From the IMG/VR virus record IMGVR_UViG_2529292920_000016: a DNA stretch of 32,229 nucleotides; one strand, 5' to 3'. The notes below the pieces were generated by a model that did no database searches, was not told where the DNA came from, and saw nothing but the letters and a program-made list of their open reading frames with translations. The stretch is from a virus (Duplodnaviria; Heunggongvirae; Uroviricota; Caudoviricetes). The translations under genes and the position numbers were made by a program. Of this stretch, positions 4,534-20,231 are shown one piece after another (the first letter of the stretch is position 1; each line of letters opens with the position of its first letter).

Positions 4534-4586
4534 GGGCGGCAGAGCAGTCACGGAGTAAAACTGATACCGCCAAACGTCACCAGAAA
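4534..4586 (-). ncRNA. dicF: DicF small RNA (ftsZ-targeting sRNA)
   Basis: The minus strand reads TTTCTGGTGACGTTTGGCGGTATCAGTTTTACTCCGTGACTGCTCTGCCGCCC followed by TTTTT (4529-4533). This is the 53-nt DicF sequence as I recall it, with its terminator. Confidence 0.85.
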
Positions 4587-4927
4587 ATTGATAACAGAGG
4601 GCGTTGCAGCGGGGTTGTCACTTAAGCGTATGGTCAACCTGACAACCCGGTGTCCTCAACGGGGGAAGGAATAACCCCGCCATACTTACCGCCGCGCCAT
4701 TTCGCGGATTGCCACAACCGGAAGCGCACGGTCGACGAAAATTTAACGACAGGCTATCTATGAACCAGCTACCTCGCCGTGCGCTTTCGCGTTATGGTCT
4801 GACTTTTCAGGGACATATCCTTTCAGTAAACTGTCAGTGCCGGATGCTCACCCGTGTCCGGCGCACGCACTCCACCTCATCCGTGGAGAACTCCTTAATT
4901 ACCAACCTTAGCTTCGTTGGTTAGCTA

Positions 4928-5146
4928 TTAACGCGGGTATGTAATCATTCTGGCAATGCTTAATGTCGCTGCTTTTTCCAGATTAGTGATATCCTGCTCC
5001 AGAGCGGACAGATTTTCAGCCTGCTTAGCCCTGGCTTCATTGGCCCATTTCAGATCCTGCGCTGCATTAATTTTCTGGCGCATCCACTCATAAAGTTCAT
5101 CATCGGTATAGTCTGGCGCGATGATGACGGGTTCTCGTTTCTGCAT
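4928..5146 (-). CDS. ydfC: YdfC-like small protein
   Basis: 72-aa ORF with GAGGA RBS before ATG 5146. Same order (ydfA-ydfB-ydfC-dicF-dicB) as the Qin dic operon. Confidence 0.75.
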   Translation of the reverse strand: MQKREPVIIAPDYTDDELYEWMRQKINAAQDLKWANEARAKQAENLSALEQDITNLEKAATLSIARMITYPR

Positions 5147-5175
5147 ACTGATTCCTCGCGGTGCTGTTTCGCTTA

Positions 5176-5304
5176 TCAGCCGTTAGATTTTGCCGAACTG
5201 GAAAGTGCCTGTTTAAATTCGCTGAAGCTGAGAGCTTCTTCGCCTTCGGCAAGACCTTCGAAGTATTCTTCGTAAGCCTTTTCCATGATTGTGTCGAAAT
5301 CCAT
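5176..5304 (-). CDS. ydfB: YdfB-like 42-aa protein
   Basis: Below the ORF-track length cutoff. ATG 5304 gives MDFDTIMEKAYEEYFEGLAEGEEALSFSEFKQALSSSAKSNG, with the stop at 5176-5178. It starts 1 nt after the ydfA stop. Confidence 0.65.
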   Translation of the reverse strand: MDFDTIMEKAYEEYFEGLAEGEEALSFSEFKQALSSSAKSNG

Positions 5305-5305
5305 A

Positions 5306-5461
5306 TCACCCACCTGAATTTCTTTCCAGCCAGCGACGCGCTCCAGATTCGGTTTTAAACGTTTTGCTTTTGGTATACGTCATCGCGGTGAACGTACCGT
5401 CCTGGTTGGGGAACACGCCACATACCAGAGATTCGCTGTTGCCAAGATCGATAGTATCCAT
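5306..5461 (-). CDS. ydfA: YdfA-like 51-aa protein, first gene of the leftward early operon
   Basis: Internal ATG 5461 with a GAGG RBS gives MDTIDLGNSESLVCGVFPNQDGTFTAMTYTKSKTFKTESGARRWLERNSGG. The longer track ORF start has no RBS. Confidence 0.7.
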   Translation of the reverse strand: MDTIDLGNSESLVCGVFPNQDGTFTAMTYTKSKTFKTESGARRWLERNSGG

Positions 5462-5554
5462 GTTGACCTCATTTCCCCTTAACGCCGGGGTAGCGGAACT
5501 GTTTGCTGAGAACACCGTGCGGTGTCTTGATGGATCGTAATTTAGTTTTCTCAT

Positions 5555-5652
5555 GAATATTGATCAAGTGCTTTTGATGATAAAACTCAATATTTAATGC
5601 AAAATAAAGCCAATACATTGAAATGTAAGGCTTTAAAATTTGTGAAGGGGGG
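5555..5652 (-). promoter_or_regulatory. Leftward early promoter/operator region (PL-equivalent)
   Basis: AT-rich gap between the repressor gene and ydfA. It holds TTGATGATAAAACTCAA (5574-5590) and the palindrome TTGATCAA (5560-5567). The 9-mer AAAACTCAA recurs at 6116-6124. Confidence 0.45.
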
Positions 5653-6060
5653 TTATTGATGTTTGTTACGTTTGCGAGCTTCTAGTAGCTCGGTGAATAG
5701 GCGATTAAAATTCTCAACGCGGGCACGGAGTTCGCTGATTTGTGCTTGCTGCTCTGATTTTGGAAGTGCGCGATACAATCGCAACATCTCCAACTCATCT
5801 TCCGATAAGTCTAAGGCGCTGTTGAGTGCAACTGGTGGATCTGGTGTTTTATCCTCGTCACCAAACAGTATCCAAGTTGGTGAACATTGCAATACCTCAG
5901 CCAGGCGATGCAAATTTTGCCCGCGCGGGGCTGTATGGTCGCTTTCCCATAGTGAAATTGATGAGCCAGATACGCCAGCAGCTTTGCTTAAATCGTTTTG
6001 ACTTAAACCAACCTGTTTGCGTCTTTCTCTAATTCGTTGACCTAAAGTTTTCTCGTTCAT
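5653..6060 (-). CDS. dicA: DicA/CI-like XRE-family repressor
   Basis: 135-aa ORF. N-terminal HTH (LSQNDLSKAAGVSGSSISLWE) and the LQCSPTWILFGDEDK block shared with DicA. Divergent from the cro-like gene. Confidence 0.8.
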   Translation of the reverse strand: MNEKTLGQRIRERRKQVGLSQNDLSKAAGVSGSSISLWESDHTAPRGQNLHRLAEVLQCSPTWILFGDEDKTPDPPVALNSALDLSEDELEMLRLYRALPKSEQQAQISELRARVENFNRLFTELLEARKRNKHQ

Positions 6061-6137
6061 ATTTAGATATCTTAATAACCCTTGACTTGAGATTCCTTGA
6101 GTGATTACTATTGAGAAAACTCAACTTTGGAGGGGTG
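6061..6137. promoter_or_regulatory. Divergent immunity promoter/operator region (PR/PRM-equivalent)
   Basis: TTGACT (6082-6087), an 18-nt spacer, then TACTAT (6106-6111) facing right. Palindrome TTGAG-AAAA-CTCAA at 6111-6124 overlaps the predicted start site. Extra TTGAG half-sites at 6087 and 6097. Confidence 0.5.
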
Positions 6138-6365
6138 ATGTTTAAATCAGACGTAATTAATTTTTATGGGACGAAAGCCAAAGTAGCGAAAGCTGCTGGT
6201 GTTGATCCATCTGCTGTTTCTCAATGGGGGGAACTGGTTCCTGAAGGTCGCGCGATGCGCCTGCAAGAGGCATCCGGCGGGGAACTTCAGTACGACCCCA
6301 AAGTTTATGACGAATATCGTAAGGCAAAGCGGGCGGGGCGGTTGAACAATGAAAATCACCCCTGA
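6138..6365 (+). CDS. dicC: DicC/Cro-like regulator
   Basis: GGAGG RBS before ATG 6138 gives a 76-aa product. The C-terminal block EGRAMRLQEASGGELQYDPKVYDEYRK matches DicC as recalled. Confidence 0.75.
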   Translation: MFKSDVINFYGTKAKVAKAAGVDPSAVSQWGELVPEGRAMRLQEASGGELQYDPKVYDEYRKAKRAGRLNNENHP

Positions 6366-6900
6366 ACAGGTTTGTGAGGCTCTGGATGCCTGGGTATGCC
6401 GACCAGGAATGACACAGGAGCAGGCGACGATATTAATCACGGAAGCATTCTGGGCTCTGAAAGAACGCCCGAACATCGATGTTCAACGCGTCACGTTTAA
6501 TGATGGCGAGGTTGATCAACGGGCGCTGTGCGTTAACCGGGTGAAGATATTCGAACGCTGGAAAGCTATCGACACCAGGGATAAGCGGAAAAAATTCACG
6601 GCGCTGATTCCGGCAATTATGGAGGCTATCCGAATTAGTGATTTCAGGCTGTATCGTGAGATCAGTGATGGAAAAAGCATTACGTACATGATCGCCGGAT
6701 TAAACAAAGAATATGGCGATGTGGTGGAGTCCGGGCTGCTTTTTGCGGATCCATCTGTTGTGGAACGTGAGACTGACGAGCTTATAGAAAAAGCTATTGC
6801 TTTCAAGCATGCGTATCGTCAGCAATATCAATATTACTTTGCAGATAAACAAATGTCTGCCAGGGGTTCGTATGAGTATCGATGCACTACGATGGGCTAA
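6349..6900 (+). CDS. YdaT-family protein (CII position)
   Basis: 183-aa ORF overlapping the cro-like stop. Position and helical character resemble Rac YdaT. Family call is from memory. Confidence 0.5.
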   Translation: MKITPEQVCEALDAWVCRPGMTQEQATILITEAFWALKERPNIDVQRVTFNDGEVDQRALCVNRVKIFERWKAIDTRDKRKKFTALIPAIMEAIRISDFRLYREISDGKSITYMIAGLNKEYGDVVESGLLFADPSVVERETDELIEKAIAFKHAYRQQYQYYFADKQMSARGSYEYRCTTMG

Positions 6901-7912
6901 AAAGGTGAAAACCGGCAGTTCATCCAGTAAGTCTGTATTGACCTGGCTTGCTGATATGTGCGGTGCCGATTTGTGTGCATACCCGTCTGTATCTGCACTG
7001 GCAGAAGTAACGGAACTGAACAAAAAGACTGTGCAGGACAGCTTACGACACCTGATGGAGATTGGGTTAATTGTTGATACCGGTGAGAGAAAAGGCAGAA
7101 CAAAGCAAATTGTGGTGTACCGACTTATCGGTGTAGAAGAAAGTGTTGCCGAGCCTGAATACACCCAAAAACGGGAGTCTTTAAAGGTGGGTAAAATCGG
7201 TGCTGTTAATAAAAACAGTACCGAAAATGGTTATGTTTCAGCACAAAACAGACCCAAAAACGGAACTCTTAGCTGCATGGAAAATAACCAAAGACACCCA
7301 AATTTTCCATCAAAGACACCCAAAAACGGATCACGGAACCCAAAGGAACCCAAAGAGCTAAACCCCACACATAACGCACGCGAGAGTGCTCCGACCAGTG
7401 AGCAGAAAGTTTTGTCGTTACAGGCTGCACCTCCTGTATTCCTGGATGGCCTGAGCGAACCCATCGAAAAATTTCCGATGACCGATAGCTGGTATTCGTC
7501 ACGGGATTTTCGACGACGGGCTGCGTTGTGGGGGATGGCTTTGCCGGAGACAGAATTCACACCTGCTGAACTTGCCGCCTTCCGGGACTACTGGGCTGCT
7601 GAGGGGAAAGTGTTTACGCAGATTCAGTGGGAGCAGAAATTCGCCCGTCACGTAAATCACGTCAGGGCGCAGGTTAAACCAGTCAGCAAGGGGGTAAACC
7701 ATGCAGCAGCACCAGGTGACACCGCATCACGGGCAGTTCAGGAAATTCGGGCAGCACGTGAGCAGTGGGAACGTGAAAACGGATTTATCAGCGACGGAAA
7801 CGGCCTGGAAGCTGTGGGAACTCATGGGGGAGGTTTATTCGAACCGCTGGACCCAGAAGAACGGGGCCGCACCTTCGAAGCTCTGGATTGCACAGATTGG
7901 TGCGATGACTGA
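6872..7912 (+). CDS. Replication initiator (O-like: N-terminal wHTH, C-terminal DnaT-like domain)
   Basis: ATG 6872 gives MSIDALRWAKKVKTGSSSSKSVLTWLADM..., a wHTH typical of phage replication proteins. DnaT-like block FPMTDSWYSS...FRDYWAAEGKVFTQIQWEQKF. Contains the iteron array. Confidence 0.75.
   Translation: MSIDALRWAKKVKTGSSSSKSVLTWLADMCGADLCAYPSVSALAEVTELNKKTVQDSLRHLMEIGLIVDTGERKGRTKQIVVYRLIGVEESVAEPEYTQKRESLKVGKIGAVNKNSTENGYVSAQNRPKNGTLSCMENNQRHPNFPSKTPKNGSRNPKEPKELNPTHNARESAPTSEQKVLSLQAAPPVFLDGLSEPIEKFPMTDSWYSSRDFRRRAALWGMALPETEFTPAELAAFRDYWAAEGKVFTQIQWEQKFARHVNHVRAQVKPVSKGVNHAAAPGDTASRAVQEIRAAREQWERENGFISDGNGLEAVGTHGGGLFEPLDPEERGRTFEALDCTDWCDD
7161..7357. repeat. Candidate ori iterons inside the initiator gene
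   Basis: The 12-mer ACCCAAAAACGG is exact at 7163-7174, 7252-7263 and 7318-7329. Related copies: AGACACCCAAATTTT at 7292-7306 and GGAACCCAAAGGAACCCAAAG at 7335-7355. An AT-rich stretch at 7177-7248 lies between copies 1 and 2. Confidence 0.65.
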
Positions 7913-8366
7913 GCAGAAAATCCGACAGGTCTGCCGCCAGTGCATGGACCGCTGCCGGGCGGGTGAAACATGGCCTCCGGACCTGGCTGAGTTTGTGGCG
8001 CTGATTTCTGAAAGCGGAGCCAATCCATTCGGTCTGACGGTGGATGCCGTGATGGAGGAGTACCGTCGCTGGCGCAACGAGTCCTGGCGATACGACGGGA
8101 GCGATAAATACCCGTGGTCTCAGCCTGTGCTGTATCACATTTGCCTCGAGATGCGTTCAAAGGGGATTGAGCGGCAGATGACCGAAGGGGAGTTAAAACG
8201 GCTTGCAGAACGGCAGCTGACGAAATGGGCAAAGCATGTTAGTAACGGCCTGAGTGTTCCGCCAGTCCGGCGACAACTGGCGGCACCCAAACGCCCGTCG
8301 GGGCCAACGCCAATTGAGTTGCTGAAACAGGAATATGAACGCCGGAAAGCGGCTGGGCTTGTCTGA
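7701..8366 (+). CDS. Replication protein P-like helicase loader
   Basis: ATG 7701 has AAGGGGG 6 nt upstream. Blocks ETWPPDLAEFVALI and YPWSQPVLYHICLEM align with lambda P as recalled. Overlaps the O-like gene by 212 nt in another frame. Confidence 0.7.
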   Translation: MQQHQVTPHHGQFRKFGQHVSSGNVKTDLSATETAWKLWELMGEVYSNRWTQKNGAAPSKLWIAQIGAMTEQKIRQVCRQCMDRCRAGETWPPDLAEFVALISESGANPFGLTVDAVMEEYRRWRNESWRYDGSDKYPWSQPVLYHICLEMRSKGIERQMTEGELKRLAERQLTKWAKHVSNGLSVPPVRRQLAAPKRPSGPTPIELLKQEYERRKAAGLV

Positions 8367-8398
8367 GTTGAGAAGTAATTTTTACCGGGAGGAAATTT

Positions 8399-8673
8399 AT
8401 GGAGACTGTTTTTGACGCACTGAAAGCAATGGGAAAAGCCACATCCATAGAACTTGCTGCGCGCGTGAAGAAGTGCTGAACGAACTATGGGAACTGAAAA
8501 AGGCTGGTTTTGTTGATAAAAGCGCGTACACCTGGCGTGTGGCTGATAACAACGTTCAGCAGGAACAGCCAGCGCAGGCAGAACTGCCGGAAGAAACCAC
8601 CACAATGAGTGAAGTTATGCAGCGCATACTGGCATTTTATCAGGGAAATGTTCGATATTTTAGACGTTACTAG
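8399..8673 (+). pseudogene. DUF1627-like winged-helix gene split by a frameshift
   Basis: GGAGG RBS, then ATG 8399 gives [26 protein letters not shown] (stop at 8477). It continues in another frame as [19 protein letters not shown]... to 8673. One missing base near 8465 would join the two pieces. Confidence 0.55.
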
Positions 8674-9045
8674 ATTAAAGAGCATTAGTTCAGATGTGAA
8701 TTGACATTGTGTGGCACAGGGTTGGGCTAGCGTGGGGGTTTGCTTTGTGTAAGAAACGGATGCTCTGCAAATTACTACTAATGCTTAATGTTAGTCTGAT
8801 CTGCTCCCCGATGATTAATACACCGCTATGTTAGTAATGTCTGTAGATCGCTGTGTGTTGCATCCATCGGTTGACCCCACAGTCCAAACCAGACTGTCAG
8901 CTTTGATTCGATTCTATCTACTCAACCTGTCAGGTAATGTCTGAGCTAATACACAGAGTACGGCTATCGCGAACTTTAAGCTAGGTATCTGATACGCACC
9001 GTTCACTTGGTCGTACTTCTTGCACTGACTAGCTATCGTGCGCAG

Positions 9046-9094
9046 TTATTTATAGGTAATCTCCAGTGTATAATTTTCCAACTTATGGGAGATT
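9046..9094 (+). promoter_or_regulatory. Promoter with flanking inverted repeat for the 280-aa gene
   Basis: TATAAT at 9069-9074 is directly preceded by TG. There is a weak -35, TTATTT, at 9046-9051. Inverted repeat AATCTCC (9058-9064) / GGAGATT (9088-9094) brackets the -10 and start site. Confidence 0.55.
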
Positions 9095-9112
9095 GTAAAA
9101 CAGGAGGAATAT

Positions 9113-9955
9113 ATGAGGAAAAAATCGTTTGGACGTTGCCCGTTTGATTTCGACGAAGATGTAAAAAAAATAGCCGCGATAAATAAATATATCCATGCGA
9201 AATTTGAGAGGCATAAAAATAAAATAGATAACCTAAAGGGGGTGGAACAAAAATTGATGGTTTTACATTACTTTAATGTACTGAATGAACTTAGTAATCA
9301 GGCTATATTTTCTTTGAGTACCGGAGCCTTTTCAGCATCGGAAGTATTAACTAGAGTTATAATGGAACAGGCTGCCAATCAATTTTATATAGCAATTGAT
9401 GATGGAAAAAATGCACAAGCATTACTCAAGGGTAGTAAGAAATTAGTTCATAGTAATGGGAAACGGTGGCTGGAGTGTTTAAAATCCAAAGAAATGACTA
9501 ATCCAGCAGCAGATGAAAGGATTCGTATCGGAAAAGAGCTAACTGATATGTTTAATAGATTGTGGCCAAATACACCTGAATATCCTGGAACCAAAAAGCT
9601 TTTCGAAGTAATTGGCTGGGAAACACACTATCATGCCTATTACGTCCCTCTTTGTGATTCAATACATACATTCTCTGATGATATGGCAAATATAGTATCT
9701 CTATATAATGCAATCCAAAGCGATAAAACTACTGCTATCGAACTCACTCTTGCAGTTAAACAAGAAAATAAACGGCTGGCAATTTATAATGTCGTAATTG
9801 CTATTGGCCTGCGGTGTGAGGCCTTAGTAAATGTATTTAACTCTTTAGGTTATCGAGATATTATAACTGAAATGGCGCCAACAATAGATGCAGTCAACCA
9901 GATTATAATTCGATATGATGATTTCGAACATTCCAGAATTTTTTATTGTCAATAA
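9113..9955 (+). CDS. Orphan 280-aa helical protein of unknown function (cargo gene)
   Basis: AGGAGG RBS at 9102-9107. Long uninterrupted ORF, visibly AT-rich relative to the backbone. I recognise no TM segment and no nucleotide-binding or nuclease motif. Confidence 0.8.
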   Translation: MRKKSFGRCPFDFDEDVKKIAAINKYIHAKFERHKNKIDNLKGVEQKLMVLHYFNVLNELSNQAIFSLSTGAFSASEVLTRVIMEQAANQFYIAIDDGKNAQALLKGSKKLVHSNGKRWLECLKSKEMTNPAADERIRIGKELTDMFNRLWPNTPEYPGTKKLFEVIGWETHYHAYYVPLCDSIHTFSDDMANIVSLYNAIQSDKTTAIELTLAVKQENKRLAIYNVVIAIGLRCEALVNVFNSLGYRDIITEMAPTIDAVNQIIIRYDDFEHSRIFYCQ

Positions 9956-10060
9956 TTAATTGGCAGAATTCGTACATGCACAACAACTAGTTATAGTTGA
10001 CCTATTTCGCTCTTGAGAGACAACCATACTCAAATCTTCCACATTGCAGGAGATTTGAGT

Positions 10061-10581
10061 ATGAATACGTCACCGAGGAACAAAGACAGTATCATAGGCC
10101 CAAAAAGACCACTTCAGATATCTCATATCTGGGGGCTCCAAATCCGGCTTGAACTGGAAGGTAAAACGCGTGATTTAGCTCGGTTTCAAGCAGAGCTACG
10201 GTGCTGCAACTGAAAAACTGGCAGTCCTATCCAATTTGAGATAACCAAAGGGACAAGAGAAGCTGTTTCTGCATTGATAAAGCTTGGCAATTTACGCAGT
10301 AAAGACTACTTGTTCCGATCTCGGGTCGGTACTAACCAACACATATCAATCCTGCAATATAACCGAATCTTTCATAGGGGGGAGAAAAGCTTGGTCTCGA
10401 AGATTCGCTTTACAGCACACATTCCATGAGAAGAACAAAACCTTGCCTTGTCTGCAAGAAAACTAAGAATCTCCGGGTGATCCAACTTCCGTTGGGCCAT
10501 AAGAAAACGGAAAGCACAGTTCGTTATCTGGGTATAGAAGTTGATGATGCATTAGAGATCTCTGAATCGATCGAAGTCTAA
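10061..10581 (+). pseudogene. Degraded short tyrosine recombinase
   Basis: GGAG RBS, then MNTSPRNKDSIIGPKRPL.... In-frame TGA at 10211 next to an apparent internal deletion. Frameshift in the G6 run at 10377-10382. The tail reads THSMRRTK...LGHKKTESTVRYLGIEVDDALEISESIEV*. Confidence 0.7.
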
Positions 10582-10993
10582 AGCTGTCAGGGCTGCAGCA
10601 GCAGCCCTGTGCCAAGAGCGTACCAATATATGTCTCAAAAAATTGGGCACAGGTCAATATCAATACCAACAACTCTGATTGTGCTCATGTGATTTACTCC
10701 TGTAGAAAACGCAGACAGTAAAAATATTTCACTGGCTGCTTCAGACAGGGCGTCCATCATATCATTACATAACAATAGCGGGGCACGATATCTAGACATG
10801 CAGCAACGATGGACATAGAATGAGTACAATCAAAAGCATGTTTAACTACTTTAATTTAAAAATCTTAGAATCTTAGGTGTAGAGTTCAATACTTAGTTAC
10901 ATACCCTTTTGAAAGCATCACAAATCATAACTATGAGCCTGTTAAAGGCATAGGTATTCTTAATTAAGAGCATTTTAATGAGAGAAAAATAAA

Positions 10994-12367
10994 ATGAAAA
11001 GACTATATTATACCCATCATGATAGTCGAACCTTAAAACTTGCTATAGAAGGTGATGTTTCTGATAATGCGAATATTTTTACAGTAATTGTAGGTAAAAA
11101 TGGCGTTGGAAAAAGCAGATTGTTATCTCAGATTGCTAAAGACTGTATTCAAGATATTCATTTCTTGAAAACTTTTAATCCATTATTTGACAGAGAAATA
11201 ACACCAAAGTTAATTGCCGTATCTACCAGCCCATTCGATAAATTCCCTCCAGGGCGTAGGTCATTAAATCACCAAAGGAAAGAAAATAATTATCGCTATG
11301 TGGGTATGCGTGGAGAAGGCCCCTTCGGCGTATCAAATGCCGTATCCCTTTTATCTTCAGCAGCGAGAGGTTGGCTAGAGAAACTTGCTTATTCAGAAAA
11401 TCCTGCAAATTTACTCGATGTTTTTCATTCTATTGATTTTGAGCCCCATATAGAGTTTGTATTTAAACCAACTTACAACGGACCGGACACTCCTGACTAT
11501 AACTTCATTGGTGTATATTCAGATGAGATATTAACGGAAGTTAAGGAGTTATATTTAAAATACAATATAAAAATTGACAGGAAGAATATTGAGAGTCTCT
11601 TAAAGTTAAACTCCGAATCACGTCATGATATTTACGAAGCACTGGTTGAAATTAATCGATTTGAACCTGAACGTAGGGCTGTAACCTTGTCAGTCGATTT
11701 TACCAATGGTGAAACATTGGTTGGCTCGACTTATGCGAATAATTATTTTTCTAGATCAATTCTTAAACTTATGAACGCTGGCTTCATGAGATTGATGGAT
11801 ATGCGACTCATAAAAAAAAGCTATGGTCCCATGTCACTTAAACGTGCGAGCTCGGGAGAACAATGTTTATTAGTGATGTTGCTTGGAATTGCAGGGCATA
11901 TAACTGATGGTTCTATAATACTAATTGATGAACCGGAAATAAGCTTGCATCCTCGATGGCAGGAAGAGTTTATCATTATGTTAACAAAAGCATTTTTAAC
12001 TTACTCAGGTTGTCAATTCATAATTGCAACTCATTCACCACAAATAATATCCAATTTGCCGAATAAAGGTTGTTATATAACATCTTTGTCGAAAAGTTAT
12101 CTTTATAAAGCAAAATACTTTAGCAACCGGTCTGCAGACTATCAACTTGCGGAACTATTTGATGCCCCTGGCATTATGAATGAATACATTGCCAGATTAG
12201 CTTTCAATTTACTTTCAAAAGTTAAGACTGCTAAGTTAGTAACAGATGATAATTGGCGTGAATTAAAACAACTCCAGCTTCTCCTTGAAAACGTTAATAG
12301 TAATGACCCTATTAATGAACTCGTAAATTCCGTATCTCAGGTGTGTGAAATTTATGCCAAAAATTAA
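10994..12367 (+). CDS. ABC/SMC-type ATPase, Septu PtuA-like
   Basis: Walker A GKNGVGKS (aa 34-41), signature-like ASSGEQ, Walker B IILIDEPEISLH and ATHSPQ His-loop. There is a long helical insert between Walker A and the signature. AT-rich. Confidence 0.8.
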   Translation: MKRLYYTHHDSRTLKLAIEGDVSDNANIFTVIVGKNGVGKSRLLSQIAKDCIQDIHFLKTFNPLFDREITPKLIAVSTSPFDKFPPGRRSLNHQRKENNYRYVGMRGEGPFGVSNAVSLLSSAARGWLEKLAYSENPANLLDVFHSIDFEPHIEFVFKPTYNGPDTPDYNFIGVYSDEILTEVKELYLKYNIKIDRKNIESLLKLNSESRHDIYEALVEINRFEPERRAVTLSVDFTNGETLVGSTYANNYFSRSILKLMNAGFMRLMDMRLIKKSYGPMSLKRASSGEQCLLVMLLGIAGHITDGSIILIDEPEISLHPRWQEEFIIMLTKAFLTYSGCQFIIATHSPQIISNLPNKGCYITSLSKSYLYKAKYFSNRSADYQLAELFDAPGIMNEYIARLAFNLLSKVKTAKLVTDDNWRELKQLQLLLENVNSNDPINELVNSVSQVCEIYAKN

Positions 12368-12983
12368 AAATCCAATTAGATTCAGCGCAGAGTCATTAGA
12401 TATTATTGAGAAAAAATTGTCTTCTCCAGATTTTAAGCATACCAACTGGGGAGATGATGATTTGCAAGTTCTCCGTGCAGAAATTAGAAATCATTACAGA
12501 GAAGAACAAAAGCTAGAATGTGTATATTGTCATGAGCCTATTGGGGTAAGAGCTGCACAAGCTGCTCCTATAGAGCATATTGTGCCAAAATCTCAATATC
12601 TATGTTTTATTTTTGAACCTAAGAATCTATGTGTAGTATGTCCTGACTGCAATGAATTCAAAGGTAAAAATGAAGTGTTATTTGAACCCGTAATAAATGG
12701 GGGGCGGCGCAAAAACTATCCAACTGCATCTGCATCATTTCGCATCGTTCATCCACATATAGATGATTATGAGATGCATATTATAAAAGCAAATCGTGTT
12801 TATGTGGACAAAACACCTAAAGGGCACTATACCATTGGAATATGTAAACTAAATAGATTTTTTCATTATTTTGGGATGTGTGATGAATTTGTTAATGATG
12901 CAAAAATTGCTGAGGCAAATGAAAATTTTTTCAAAAAGGTAGTATTACTACTAATGAATTATTGGATGATGACATTCATTTGA
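12354..12983 (+). CDS. HNH endonuclease, Septu PtuB-like
   Basis: ATG 12354 (or GTG 12345) overlaps the ATPase stop. HNH motif: CVYCHEP...IEHIVPKS...NLCVVCPDCNEFKG. Confidence 0.8.
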   Translation: MPKIKNPIRFSAESLDIIEKKLSSPDFKHTNWGDDDLQVLRAEIRNHYREEQKLECVYCHEPIGVRAAQAAPIEHIVPKSQYLCFIFEPKNLCVVCPDCNEFKGKNEVLFEPVINGGRRKNYPTASASFRIVHPHIDDYEMHIIKANRVYVDKTPKGHYTIGICKLNRFFHYFGMCDEFVNDAKIAEANENFFKKVVLLLMNYWMMTFI

Positions 12984-13242
12984 TTTAACTATGAATTATT
13001 ATATTGTAAAGTAATCAGGTAAGATATGTTAGACAGTGAGACTATTGCCTTACAGAATTCATTATTCTTATGGATCGCCTTTCTGACTGATTTCATATTG
13101 GCGGGGTAACGGGAGTTAAGTAGAATGGCTGCGGGTGCTTGAGGCTATCTGTCTCAGGCATGAACACCAAAGGCAGATAGAGAAAAGCCCCAGTTAACAT
13201 TACGCGTCCTGCAAGACGCTTAACATTAATCTGAGGCCAATT

Positions 13243-14331
13243 TCATGCTAGACACATGTAGGTTAGCCTCTTACGTGCCGGAAGGCAAGGAGATGTATGG
13301 GTCCACCACATATTGCAATTTTTATTCTCTTTTAAAATATATTCCACGGGCGTCATTAGTGCGAGCGCCTTGTGGGGTCTTTTGCTGTTATACAGCACCA
13401 GATATTCCGCCAGCTTCTGGTTAAATAGCGCCAGATCTTCAAAGAGTAAAATCTCATTAAATTCAATAAACTGCTCTCTTAACGTCCGGTTAAAACGTTC
13501 ACAGATAGCGTTCATTTTTGGCGTGTAGGGATAGGTCCAGAGGTGTTTGATAGCGGCTTCCTGCAGCGTTTTGTCGAAGTTTCCCAGGAACTCTTTTCCG
13601 TTATCTGTGATTATCTGGCTGATACCGACCGGGAACAACCGGGCTGCGCGGCTGAAGAAGTGATTGACGATATCACTGTTGAGTGACGGCACAGCCAGCG
13701 CCAGCGCGTAATTGCTGCATTCGTCGATCATGGTGATGACATAGCGACGCAGTTCGCCCATTCTGAGCTCAATGGCGTCCATCCCAATGAGCTCACCTGT
13801 CTTTACCGGGCGGTAGTGCTTTGGCCTGCGGGGTTTGGCAGACCGCTTTTTGACAAGCAGTGCCTTCCCCCGCGATCCCAGACGCACAGGTATCATCCGC
13901 ATTTTATCATGTGCGGCAGCGATCATTCTGCCGATGGTGGAAACACTCGGACAGGCCAGATAGCGCTGTTCGCACCAGGGCTTCAGGCGAACAAAAATCT
14001 GCTCTTTACCGAGGTTCGGCAGCTCTGTCCTGAGGCGTCGAATCTCTTTCAGCACATCGGGATGCCAGTGTTTTTTTCGTCGCACCAGAGGTGCCTTACT
14101 GTGCGGGATTAGCCCCTCAGGTCCTTCCTTGTTCAGTAACTGACGCCACCAGTAAAGCGTGCGGCAGGACACGCCAAAGGCTTCAGAAGCTGCAGAAATA
14201 CCGTGTTTATCCCAGAAGTGCAGAGCCTTCATTCTCATTGTTGCTATATCAGCCATCACTGAAAGCCTCAACGCATAATCGGCCGTTTGGTAGTACTTAG
14301 GATAGCCAACCATCAGATGCTGCATTTGCAT
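13243..14331 (-). CDS. DDE (rve-type) transposase, IS481-like single-ORF architecture
   Basis: 362-aa ORF with an N-terminal HTH. DDE candidates are GMDAIE, ITDNGKEF and NAICERFNRTL. The family guess is from architecture only. Confidence 0.75.
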   Translation of the reverse strand: MQMQHLMVGYPKYYQTADYALRLSVMADIATMRMKALHFWDKHGISAASEAFGVSCRTLYWWRQLLNKEGPEGLIPHSKAPLVRRKKHWHPDVLKEIRRLRTELPNLGKEQIFVRLKPWCEQRYLACPSVSTIGRMIAAAHDKMRMIPVRLGSRGKALLVKKRSAKPRRPKHYRPVKTGELIGMDAIELRMGELRRYVITMIDECSNYALALAVPSLNSDIVNHFFSRAARLFPVGISQIITDNGKEFLGNFDKTLQEAAIKHLWTYPYTPKMNAICERFNRTLREQFIEFNEILLFEDLALFNQKLAEYLVLYNSKRPHKALALMTPVEYILKENKNCNMWWTHTSPCLPARKRLTYMCLA

Positions 14332-14387
14332 AGTGCAATCTCCCCTTACTTATCCGGAGGCAATTGCAATATCTCTGTGAACTTACA
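13257..14387 (-). mobile_element. Insertion sequence (boundaries approximate)
   Basis: Candidate terminal inverted repeats are TGTAGGTT at 13257 and the reverse complement of AACTTACA, ending at 14387. I found no clear target duplication, so the ends are uncertain. Confidence 0.5.
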
Positions 14388-14402
14388 CAGGAGAAGCAGG
14401 CT

Positions 14403-14558
14403 ATGAAGCAGCAAAAGGCGATGTTAATCGCCCTGATCGTCATCTGTTTAACCGTCATAGTGACGACACTGGTAACGAGGAAAGACCTCTGCGAGGTACG
14501 AATCCGAACCGGCCAGACGGAGGCCGCTGTCTTCACAGCTTACGAACCTGAGGAGTAA
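14403..14558 (+). CDS. hokD: Hok-family membrane toxin (HokD/RelF-like)
   Basis: The 51-aa product MKQQKAMLIALIVICLTVIVTTLVTRKDLCEVRIRTGQTEAAVFTAYEPEE is near-identical to HokD as recalled. GGAG RBS. Confidence 0.85.
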   Translation: MKQQKAMLIALIVICLTVIVTTLVTRKDLCEVRIRTGQTEAAVFTAYEPEE

Positions 14559-19105: not shown

Positions 19106-19181
19106 GGCCCTTTAGCTCAGTGGTGAGAGCGAGCGACTCATAATCGCCAGGTCGCTGGTTCAAATCCAGCAAGGGCCACCA
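19106..19181 (+). tRNA. tRNA with CAU anticodon, ileX/ileZ-like (Ile2) or Met
   Basis: Acceptor GGCCCTT/AAGGGCC, anticodon loop CTCATAA, T-loop GGTTCAAATCC and encoded CCA. Close to E. coli ileX as recalled. Confidence 0.85.
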
Positions 19182-19190
19182 TCACATACC

Positions 19191-19260
19191 GCCATTAGCT
19201 CATCGGCAGAGAGCGTCAGCTTTCGAAACTGGCTGTGTGGGGCCCGGGTCCCCGATGGCA
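19191..19260 (+). tRNA. Degenerate tRNA-like element (possible Arg-UCG pseudo-tRNA)
   Basis: Acceptor-like GCCATT.../...GATGGC and D-arm GCTCATCGGCAGAGAGC. The loop TTTCGAA sits on an imperfect stem. The T-arm GGGGCCCGGGTCCCC lacks TTC. Confidence 0.3.
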
Positions 19261-19278
19261 ATCCATTATCTGCATTAT

Positions 19279-19355
19279 GCGTTGTTAGCTCAGCCGGACA
19301 GAGCAATTGCCTTCTAAGCAATCGGTCACTGGTTCGAATCCAGTACAACGCGCCA
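19279..19355 (+). tRNA. tRNA-Arg (UCU)
   Basis: Acceptor GCGTTGT/ACAACGC, anticodon loop CTTCTAA, T-loop GGTTCGAATCC and encoded CCA. Confidence 0.85.
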
Positions 19356-19819: not shown

Positions 19820-20195
19820 ATACATATCTGGATTATCACCTGTTACGGTAAAAAGTGATTGCTTACTGTTTTTGTGAATGGCATTGCAGCAGCCGGATAA
19901 TGTCAGTGCTGGCTGACTGTGTACTGGTGGCGGGTGTGGTGGTTGTTGCTTTCCCGTTGCTGAAAAAGAAAACGCCAGACTGTTAGTCGGAGAAATTTTT
20001 AAATACTTCACAATTCAGGCGGTTGACTGTTGTCTGGTTTGCGGGGAGTTTGTTAAAAGAAACTGGCATGGTGAATCCACCTGTGCGGAGGGGCAATCAG
20101 CGAGTAGGTATATGGGATAATCGCGGATTCAGGTGCTGGTACTGAATTCACCGGGAGGCACCCGGCACCATGCAATGGCACATAGCGCCACTCTC

Positions 20196-20231
20196 CAGCC
20201 CCTCTCCGGAGGGGCTGTTTATATTGATTTT
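20196..20231 (+). terminator. Strong rho-independent terminator
   Basis: CAGCCCCTC-TCCG-GAGGGGCTG (9-bp stem) followed by TTTATATTGATTTT. Confidence 0.75.

Follow-up and report, generated by a model that had tools for sequence, protein, structure and literature searches.

Dedicated prophage positions for interchangeable defence systems are established in P2-like phages and P4 satellites and have been noted more widely (PMC9122126, PMC9519451, PMC10121019). At these hotspots, i.e., the cos-proximal old/tin and the Z/fun loci, core genes flank a short interval with alternative defence systems, among which Kiwa, retrons, AbiL-type and single-gene systems recur. Here we analyse a 32,229-nucleotide stretch (IMG/VR record IMGVR_UViG_2529292920_000016), termed “the window” throughout, which is a sequence of Escherichia coli O127:H6 E2348/69 (NC_011601.1 from position 1268129; one base different) and carries a Qin-like lambdoid prophage. 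We argue that the interval between the prophage genes P and hokD is probably an accessory-gene slot, which in this strain received a composite import with an intact, putatively defensive type I Septu operon.

Lambdoid phages have a mosaic nin region and are described by the “moron” mosaic model (Baker et al. 1991, cited in PMC13586616). The P-hokD slot, whose position would match the beginning of the lambda nin region, resembles these in lying after P and ren and before rusA and Q, and in its sharp identity breaks at module boundaries and exchange by recombination between related phages. Yet its inserts are multi-kb, AT-rich conflict systems with insertion sequence (IS) scars rather than small nin open reading frames (ORFs). 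In contrast to the P2/P4 hotspots, the slot is lambdoid and of the Qin type, its anchors are a Ren-like DUF977 gene and hok/sok, and virulence genes (paa) and ordinary nin-type ORFs are found among its cargo as well. A literature search found no paper or census naming a DUF977-to-hok/sok slot, and a prior description is possible. The slot is a further example of a known phenomenon and changes no concept; it adds a lambdoid counterpart to the well-studied P2/P4 hotspots, and its easily found anchors (the Ren-like DUF977 and the sok/hokD leader) make it minable across thousands of Enterobacteriaceae genomes for defence or virulence cargo, both known and new.

Variable Cargo between Conserved Anchors

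The prophage adjoins potC and follows the order int, dicB/dicF, a cI-like gene, cro, ydaT, O (DnaT-like), P, the P-hokD interval, hokD, rem, DUF968, rusA and Q. The slot would be the interval that, in lambdoid prophages of the Qin type, separates the O/P/DUF1627/DUF977 replication module from the hok/sok-rem-DUF968-rusA-Q module. A first-pass annotation of the window had proposed that this interval is a recombination hotspot with repeated exchange of cargo. Related prophages were aligned on P/DUF1627/DUF977 to the left and sok-hokD to the right, and the contents of the slot were catalogued. No fixed conserved block emerged; instead, about 25 related E. coli loci hold at least 14 different fillings between the same anchors, which supports the proposal. 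The anchors themselves are found across loci L002-L034, and partial matches to the query occur in 5217 of 5426 genomes.

Among the slot contents of this non-random sample, PADLOC matches comprise Septu, Kiwa next to QueH (KwaA 1e-101, KwaB 1e-159), AbiL (AbiLi 4.5e-91, AbiLii 2.9e-29), a type I-C reverse transcriptase (RT)-Toprim retron (4e-196), an ABC-three-component (ABC-3C) system (PDC-M68B, 1e-41), a PDC-M68A-like nuclease accompanied by a partner, a split PD-T7-1 and a PD-T4-6/Stk2-like kinase that is paired with a PP2C phosphatase. The split PD-T7-1 lies beside an intact copy of the small recombinase discussed below. Further fillings are the Paa adhesin in enterohaemorrhagic E. coli (EHEC) O157/O145/O111 prophages, an alpha/beta hydrolase, a DUF4209 protein or a KilA-N protein, and series of small phage ORFs (methyltransferase, DUF7167, ead/Ea22, DUF4014). 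Many fillings are defence or toxin-antitoxin systems, but the “conflict-type” label of the first-pass annotation does not fit every one.

Several slot genes are unannotated and have no PADLOC match (L017 3471-5488; L027 895-1839 and 5017-5997; L029 2897-3735). They comprise the 380-residue partner of the PDC-M68A-like nuclease and hypothetical proteins of 314 and 326 residues, and their position makes them candidates for new defence genes.

An Intact Type I Septu Operon

Septu is an ATPase-nuclease complex that restricts incoming phage DNA. The pair described in the first-pass annotation as “Septu-like” is an intact type I Septu with full-length PADLOC matches to both components. PtuA matches PDLC00283 over residues 2-455 (1.9e-165) and Pfam AAA_21 (1.8e-20), and its translation contains a Walker A motif (GKNGVGKS), a signature motif (SSGEQ) and a Walker B motif (ILIDEPE). 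PtuB matches PDLC00325 (5.7e-82) and Pfam HNH (4.7e-5), and the HNH core is intact. Like other type I Septu systems, the pair is an operon of two overlapping genes, for an ABC-type ATPase and an HNH nuclease, with ptuB immediately downstream of ptuA, in the same orientation and with a 14-nt overlap. The PtuA of the window differs in being only distantly related to solved PtuA chains (8ee4, 3e-7, ATPase core only). No RT ORF was found in 8.4-14.4 kb and no retron RNA in the Rfam scan; the pair is stand-alone and not the effector of a type I-A retron. On the basis of these domain matches, PtuA/PtuB would act as a Septu ATPase-HNH nuclease defence shielding the lysogen from other phages.

The nearest species-level relatives of PtuAB occur in Pseudomonas (40-66% amino acid identity), where six loci keep the ptuA-ptuB pairing without a DUF5677 neighbour. 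Within E. coli the Septu block is confined to 19 of 20,395 records, and in these 19 ptuA, the conserved domain of ptuB and the DUF5677 gene are full-length ORFs that are 99-100% conserved. In one relative (L009) ptuA is split.

The relBE Arrangement of K-12 Qin

As stated in the first-pass annotation, relB-relE lies directly upstream of hokD in K-12 Qin. The full arrangement is flxA-ydfV-relB-relE-hokD, and this version is found in 1114 of 5426 complete E. coli genomes. The right side (hokD-rem-ydfU-Q) is shared with the window at 88% identity and relBE occupies the same interval, whereas K-12 is without O, P, DUF1627, DUF977 and the sok/mok leader. On the left, K-12 Qin has lost the anchor genes O and P by deletion; on the right, relBE takes the place of the sok leader as far as the Shine-Dalgarno sequence of hokD. 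Homology between K-12 and the window begins at 14387 (7291 in the K-12 locus), exactly at this Shine-Dalgarno sequence, which is also the insertion point of an IS (Table 1). K-12 relBE DNA has no match anywhere in the window, where the Septu block is present instead, as had been proposed. One prophage (L033) is ordered DUF977-QueH-Kiwa-ISNCY'-flxA-ydfV-relBE-hokD, i.e., it stacks relBE onto another filling, and therefore the K-12 relBE position and the P-hokD slot are the same interval. The long-known relBE-hokD arrangement of K-12 is thereby placed in context as one filling among many.

At the equivalent of 14387, K-12 reads GACAGGAGA, sharing “AC” with the IS end CACAGGAGA and not with the empty site GCAAGGAGA. 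This hints, though very weakly, at an origin of the relBE junction at a site occupied by an IS.

Composition of the Imported Block

The patchwork of about 6 kb between the P-like gene and hokD was reproduced by profile searches and alignments, which located all the pieces named in the first-pass annotation (Table 1). It is mostly AT-rich, as had been stated, with a GC content of 33-44% across 9-13 kb compared to 45-58% in the backbone. The extent originally assigned to the island, 8399-14402, does cover the imported pieces, but also takes in 13062-13293, which according to Rfam is the native sok/mok leader of hokD and not cargo. The cargo proper is about 8709-13061. Two pieces are added to the original list, the C-terminal tail of a DUF977/Ren-like gene (8605-8673) and the left-end scar of an IS3-family element.

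Table 1. Features of the P-hokD interval and its anchors (window coordinates).
Feature	Position	Strand	Evidence
Replication protein P, left backbone anchor	7905..8366	+	Pfam PF06992 (Phage_lambda_P) 1.3e-16; RefSeq annotation
DUF1627 gene remnant	8399..8604	+	Alignment with intact copies; RefSeq pseudogene note
DUF977/LygF (Ren-like), last 22 codons and downstream sequence; left edge of slot	8605..8760	+	Translation match, DNA matches, PHROG
IS3-family (IS407-like) left-end scar, 47 bp	8796..8842	+	Alignment upstream of IS3-family transposase genes
DUF5677 gene, intact, 280 residues	9113..9955	+	Pfam PF18928 3.3e-9
Tyrosine recombinase pseudogene (200-residue type)	10007..10623	+	About 90% identity to plasmid “site-specific integrase”
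IS110-family left-end scar, 120 bp	10655..10774	-	Alignment with IS110 transposase gene start and leader in L013
ptuA, Septu type I ABC-type ATPase, intact	10994..12367	+	PADLOC PtuA 1.9e-165, full length; Pfam AAA_21/AAA_15
ptuB, Septu HNH nuclease	12354..12983	+	PADLOC PtuB 5.7e-82; Pfam HNH 4.7e-5
Native hokD leader (promoter, mok start, sok target); right edge of slot	13062..13293	+	Rfam sok RF01794
IS481-family insertion sequence, 1095 bp	13294..14388	-	Empty site in FORC 064; NCBIfam IS481 1.7e-65
hokD, right backbone anchor	14403..14558	+	Pfam HOK_GEF 1.5e-22; RefSeq

At the left edge, alignment with intact copies attributes the reported frameshift of the DUF1627-like gene to a 13-bp deletion and reveals that the gene is also truncated: its reading frame is cut after about codon 68, at 8604, and joined to the final 22 codons of DUF977/LygF, identified by a translation that matches the C-termini of DUF977 proteins. 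DUF977 has a Ren-like PHROG match, and ren is the gene next after P in lambda. DNA homology to four other loci (L006, L027, L028 and L029) stops at 8708-8771. The IS3 scar, with which a DUF5677 cassette begins on its left, aligns with the DNA immediately preceding IS3-family transposase genes of phage mEp234 and plasmid pKS2022.

The DUF5677 gene, the “orphan gene” of the first-pass annotation, encodes a protein with an all-helical AlphaFold2 model (mean predicted local distance difference test score 93.9). Its cassette (8796-10165) consists of the IS3 scar, the gene and the first 160 bp of the recombinase gene, and is 89.7% identical across 1391 bp to a locus in a P2-like prophage (L024); there its neighbours are the tail-fibre assembly gene on one side and the sheath gene on the other. 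This is the Z/fun locus, which has been named a P2 defence locus (PMC9519451; PMC13586616). The protein has no match in PADLOC or NCBIfam, and its PHROG is a family of unknown function. A DUF5677 protein of Bacillota is enriched beside defence-marker recombinases, yet gave no defence in one published test (PMC12632615). DUF5677 is flagged, alongside the unannotated slot genes, as a candidate second accessory or defence gene, and the presence of its cassette in the P2 fun hotspot is a modest lead. A role as third Septu component was considered and rejected, since the gene is absent beside Pseudomonas PtuAB and present without PtuAB in the P2-like prophage. A more speculative idea, which we consider doubtful, is that the cassette might be an unrecognised single-gene anti-phage or exclusion determinant that shuttles between hotspots of unrelated temperate phages, namely the P2 fun locus and the lambdoid DUF977-hok slot, possibly with the recombinase module described below as cassette-capture agent.

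Two chimeric ORFs from metagenome or assembly contigs (P0006 and P0011) match the DUF5677 protein over their first 82-86 or so residues and carry other sequence from the same codon on; in P0006 this is a QueH-like C-terminus, and QueH is also cargo of the P-hokD slot. These chimeras are further recombination within the DUF5677 cassette.

The “dead integrase” is a tyrosine recombinase gene with an 82-bp deletion and frameshifts relative to intact, 200-residue plasmid copies, which comprise the catalytic domain alone; its relatives occur in more than 2000 enterobacterial plasmid records. The gene is a discrete module of about 0.7 kb with sharp ends in four to six contexts (L011, L012, L024, L027, L032 and the window). 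The left end falls at the same point, about 50 bp before the ATG, in six contexts including plasmids, P2-like phages and the lambdoid slot, and the right end about 40 bp past the stop codon in four contexts, just beyond a 9-bp hairpin. Over the ribosome-binding site there is a perfect 12-9-12 palindrome, ACTCAAATCTCC N9 GGAGATTTGAGT. Some P2-like phages retain merely the first 74-160 bp of the recombinase gene at the right edge of the fun locus, with different cargo leftward.

Adjacent to the recombinase pseudogene, a 17-codon stub beginning MSTIRVVGIDI (10635-10688, minus strand) had been likened to the start of an IS110-type transposase. Indeed, the stub, which is encoded by the first 34 nt of the IS110 scar, aligns with the MNTVRVVGIDIAKS start and the 5' leader of an intact IS110-family transposase gene (L013).

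Probable Entry and Exchange of Cargo

The junctions differ according to cargo, falling at 8545, 8565, 8604 or 8708-8771 on the left and at 13061-13062, 13086, 13097, 13116 or 13120 on the right, and a repeat search at the block ends revealed no flanking direct repeats or attachment (att)-like sites around the cargo; therefore, a single att site is unlikely. The prophage of strain FORC 064 is 99.8% identical to the window over 4700-13293, including the cargo, but 92.4% identical from hokD onward, and this break at the flank indicates that the flanks have undergone homologous recombination. The same Septu cargo (99.8%) resides in prophages at two chromosomal sites, potC and tRNA-Ser/mtfA. The pieces of the cargo are separately distributed, with the DUF5677 cassette in a P2-like prophage, PtuAB relatives in Pseudomonas and the recombinase on plasmids, and a comparison of the cargo DNA with the phage collection returned only short scraps (the DUF977 tail, the IS3 end and the 5' end of the recombinase gene).

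These observations suggest the following course of events. The import into E2348/69 would have been a composite, AT-rich piece built elsewhere from unrelated parts, i.e., an IS3-bounded DUF5677 cassette, a decayed plasmid-type tyrosine recombinase, an IS110 scar and an intact type I Septu operon. On its left side it would have displaced the greater part of DUF1627 and DUF977, and on its right side a small ORF that preceded sok; the pieces besides PtuAB and DUF5677 would be scars. Entry was most likely illegitimate or IS-assisted rather than via a single att site, and three IS traces are present. Once in place, new cargo may spread between lambdoid phages that co-reside in or co-infect a cell, through homologous recombination within the conserved flanks. 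The IS481-family element presumably landed in the hokD Shine-Dalgarno sequence later than the cargo import.

Alternatively, the whole AT-rich block could have arrived as a single integrative element through site-specific insertion by its own tyrosine recombinase, which decayed afterwards. Such an element would account for a recombinase pseudogene in mid-block, and the sharp, reproducible ends of the recombinase module, the palindrome over its ribosome-binding site and an intact copy in the same slot of strain FCI54 agree with it as well. However, the block ends lack direct repeats, the junction positions vary with cargo type, DUF5677 and PtuAB are found apart elsewhere, IS3 and IS110 scars lie between the pieces, and the recombinase consists of a catalytic domain only and is mostly plasmid-borne, which makes a single element improbable. 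That the content is instead a fixed conserved block of the prophage family, as the identical block in 19 records might suggest, is refuted by thousands of records that match the anchors without the cargo and by the alternative fillings.

Inert decay of a cryptic prophage, in which the genes including Septu are non-functional passengers and strain variation is random erosion, draws on the many pseudogenes and IS scars, the separation of hokD from its leader by an IS, the altered tail of ptuB in the window and the split ptuA of L009. Erosion cannot, however, create the complete, different systems that other strains hold at the same place, nor does it fit the full-length state and 99-100% conservation of ptuA, the conserved domain of ptuB and DUF5677 in the 19 records; we consider decay an unlikely account of the region. 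The reading of an accessory-gene slot with a composite import, illegitimate or IS-assisted entry, recombination in the flanks and a Septu defence is therefore preferred, and we assign it a probability of roughly 0.85. Several points weigh against it. The loci were picked from BLAST rankings and are neither a random sample nor a census; small phage ORFs of an ordinary kind make up much of what other prophages carry there; and the sites returned by a promoter and terminator scan did not exceed chance. Furthermore, an A-run in ptuB at about 12932 is A5 in the window compared to A6 in NC_011601.1, FORC 064 and the other relatives. This 1-nt deletion shifts the frame of the final 14 codons and so alters residues beyond the part that is conserved with Pseudomonas homologues. 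The difference could be one of sequencing version or a real variant.

The hokD Leader and the IS481-Family Element

Both parts of a hok/sok type I toxin-antitoxin system are present, i.e., the Hok ORF and the sok leader, the latter matching Rfam RF01794 at 13133-13299 (112 bits) and being conserved in all related loci from 13061-13120 onward. The IS listed in the first-pass annotation belongs to the IS481 family and has inserted into the hokD Shine-Dalgarno sequence, where a 6-bp duplication (AGGAGA) occupies 13288-13293 and 14389-14394. Its ends, defined together with the duplication against the empty site in strain FORC 064, are imperfect inverted repeats of about 25 bp ending in TGTA. The transposase matches NCBIfam transpos_IS481 with 221.4 bits, just below the 224-bit cutoff, and its ORF (13243-14331) runs 51 nt beyond the element end. 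The element parts the hokD ORF from its mok/sok leader, and therefore the regulation of hokD is probably broken.

The same IS481-family element occurs at the identical nucleotide in five other loci (L004-L007 and L015), of which four carry copies 99.9-100% identical to that of the window and one (L004) a copy 97.6% identical. The prophages that share this junction hold different cargo, and their sok leaders are just 75-96% identical. The shared junction could reflect repeated targeted insertion or spread by recombination.

Elsewhere in the prophage, Rfam matches comprise the small RNA STnc100 (124 bits; 20037-20226), DicF (77 bits; 4534-4585) and two tRNA genes (19106-19352), which are located downstream of a DNA methyltransferase.

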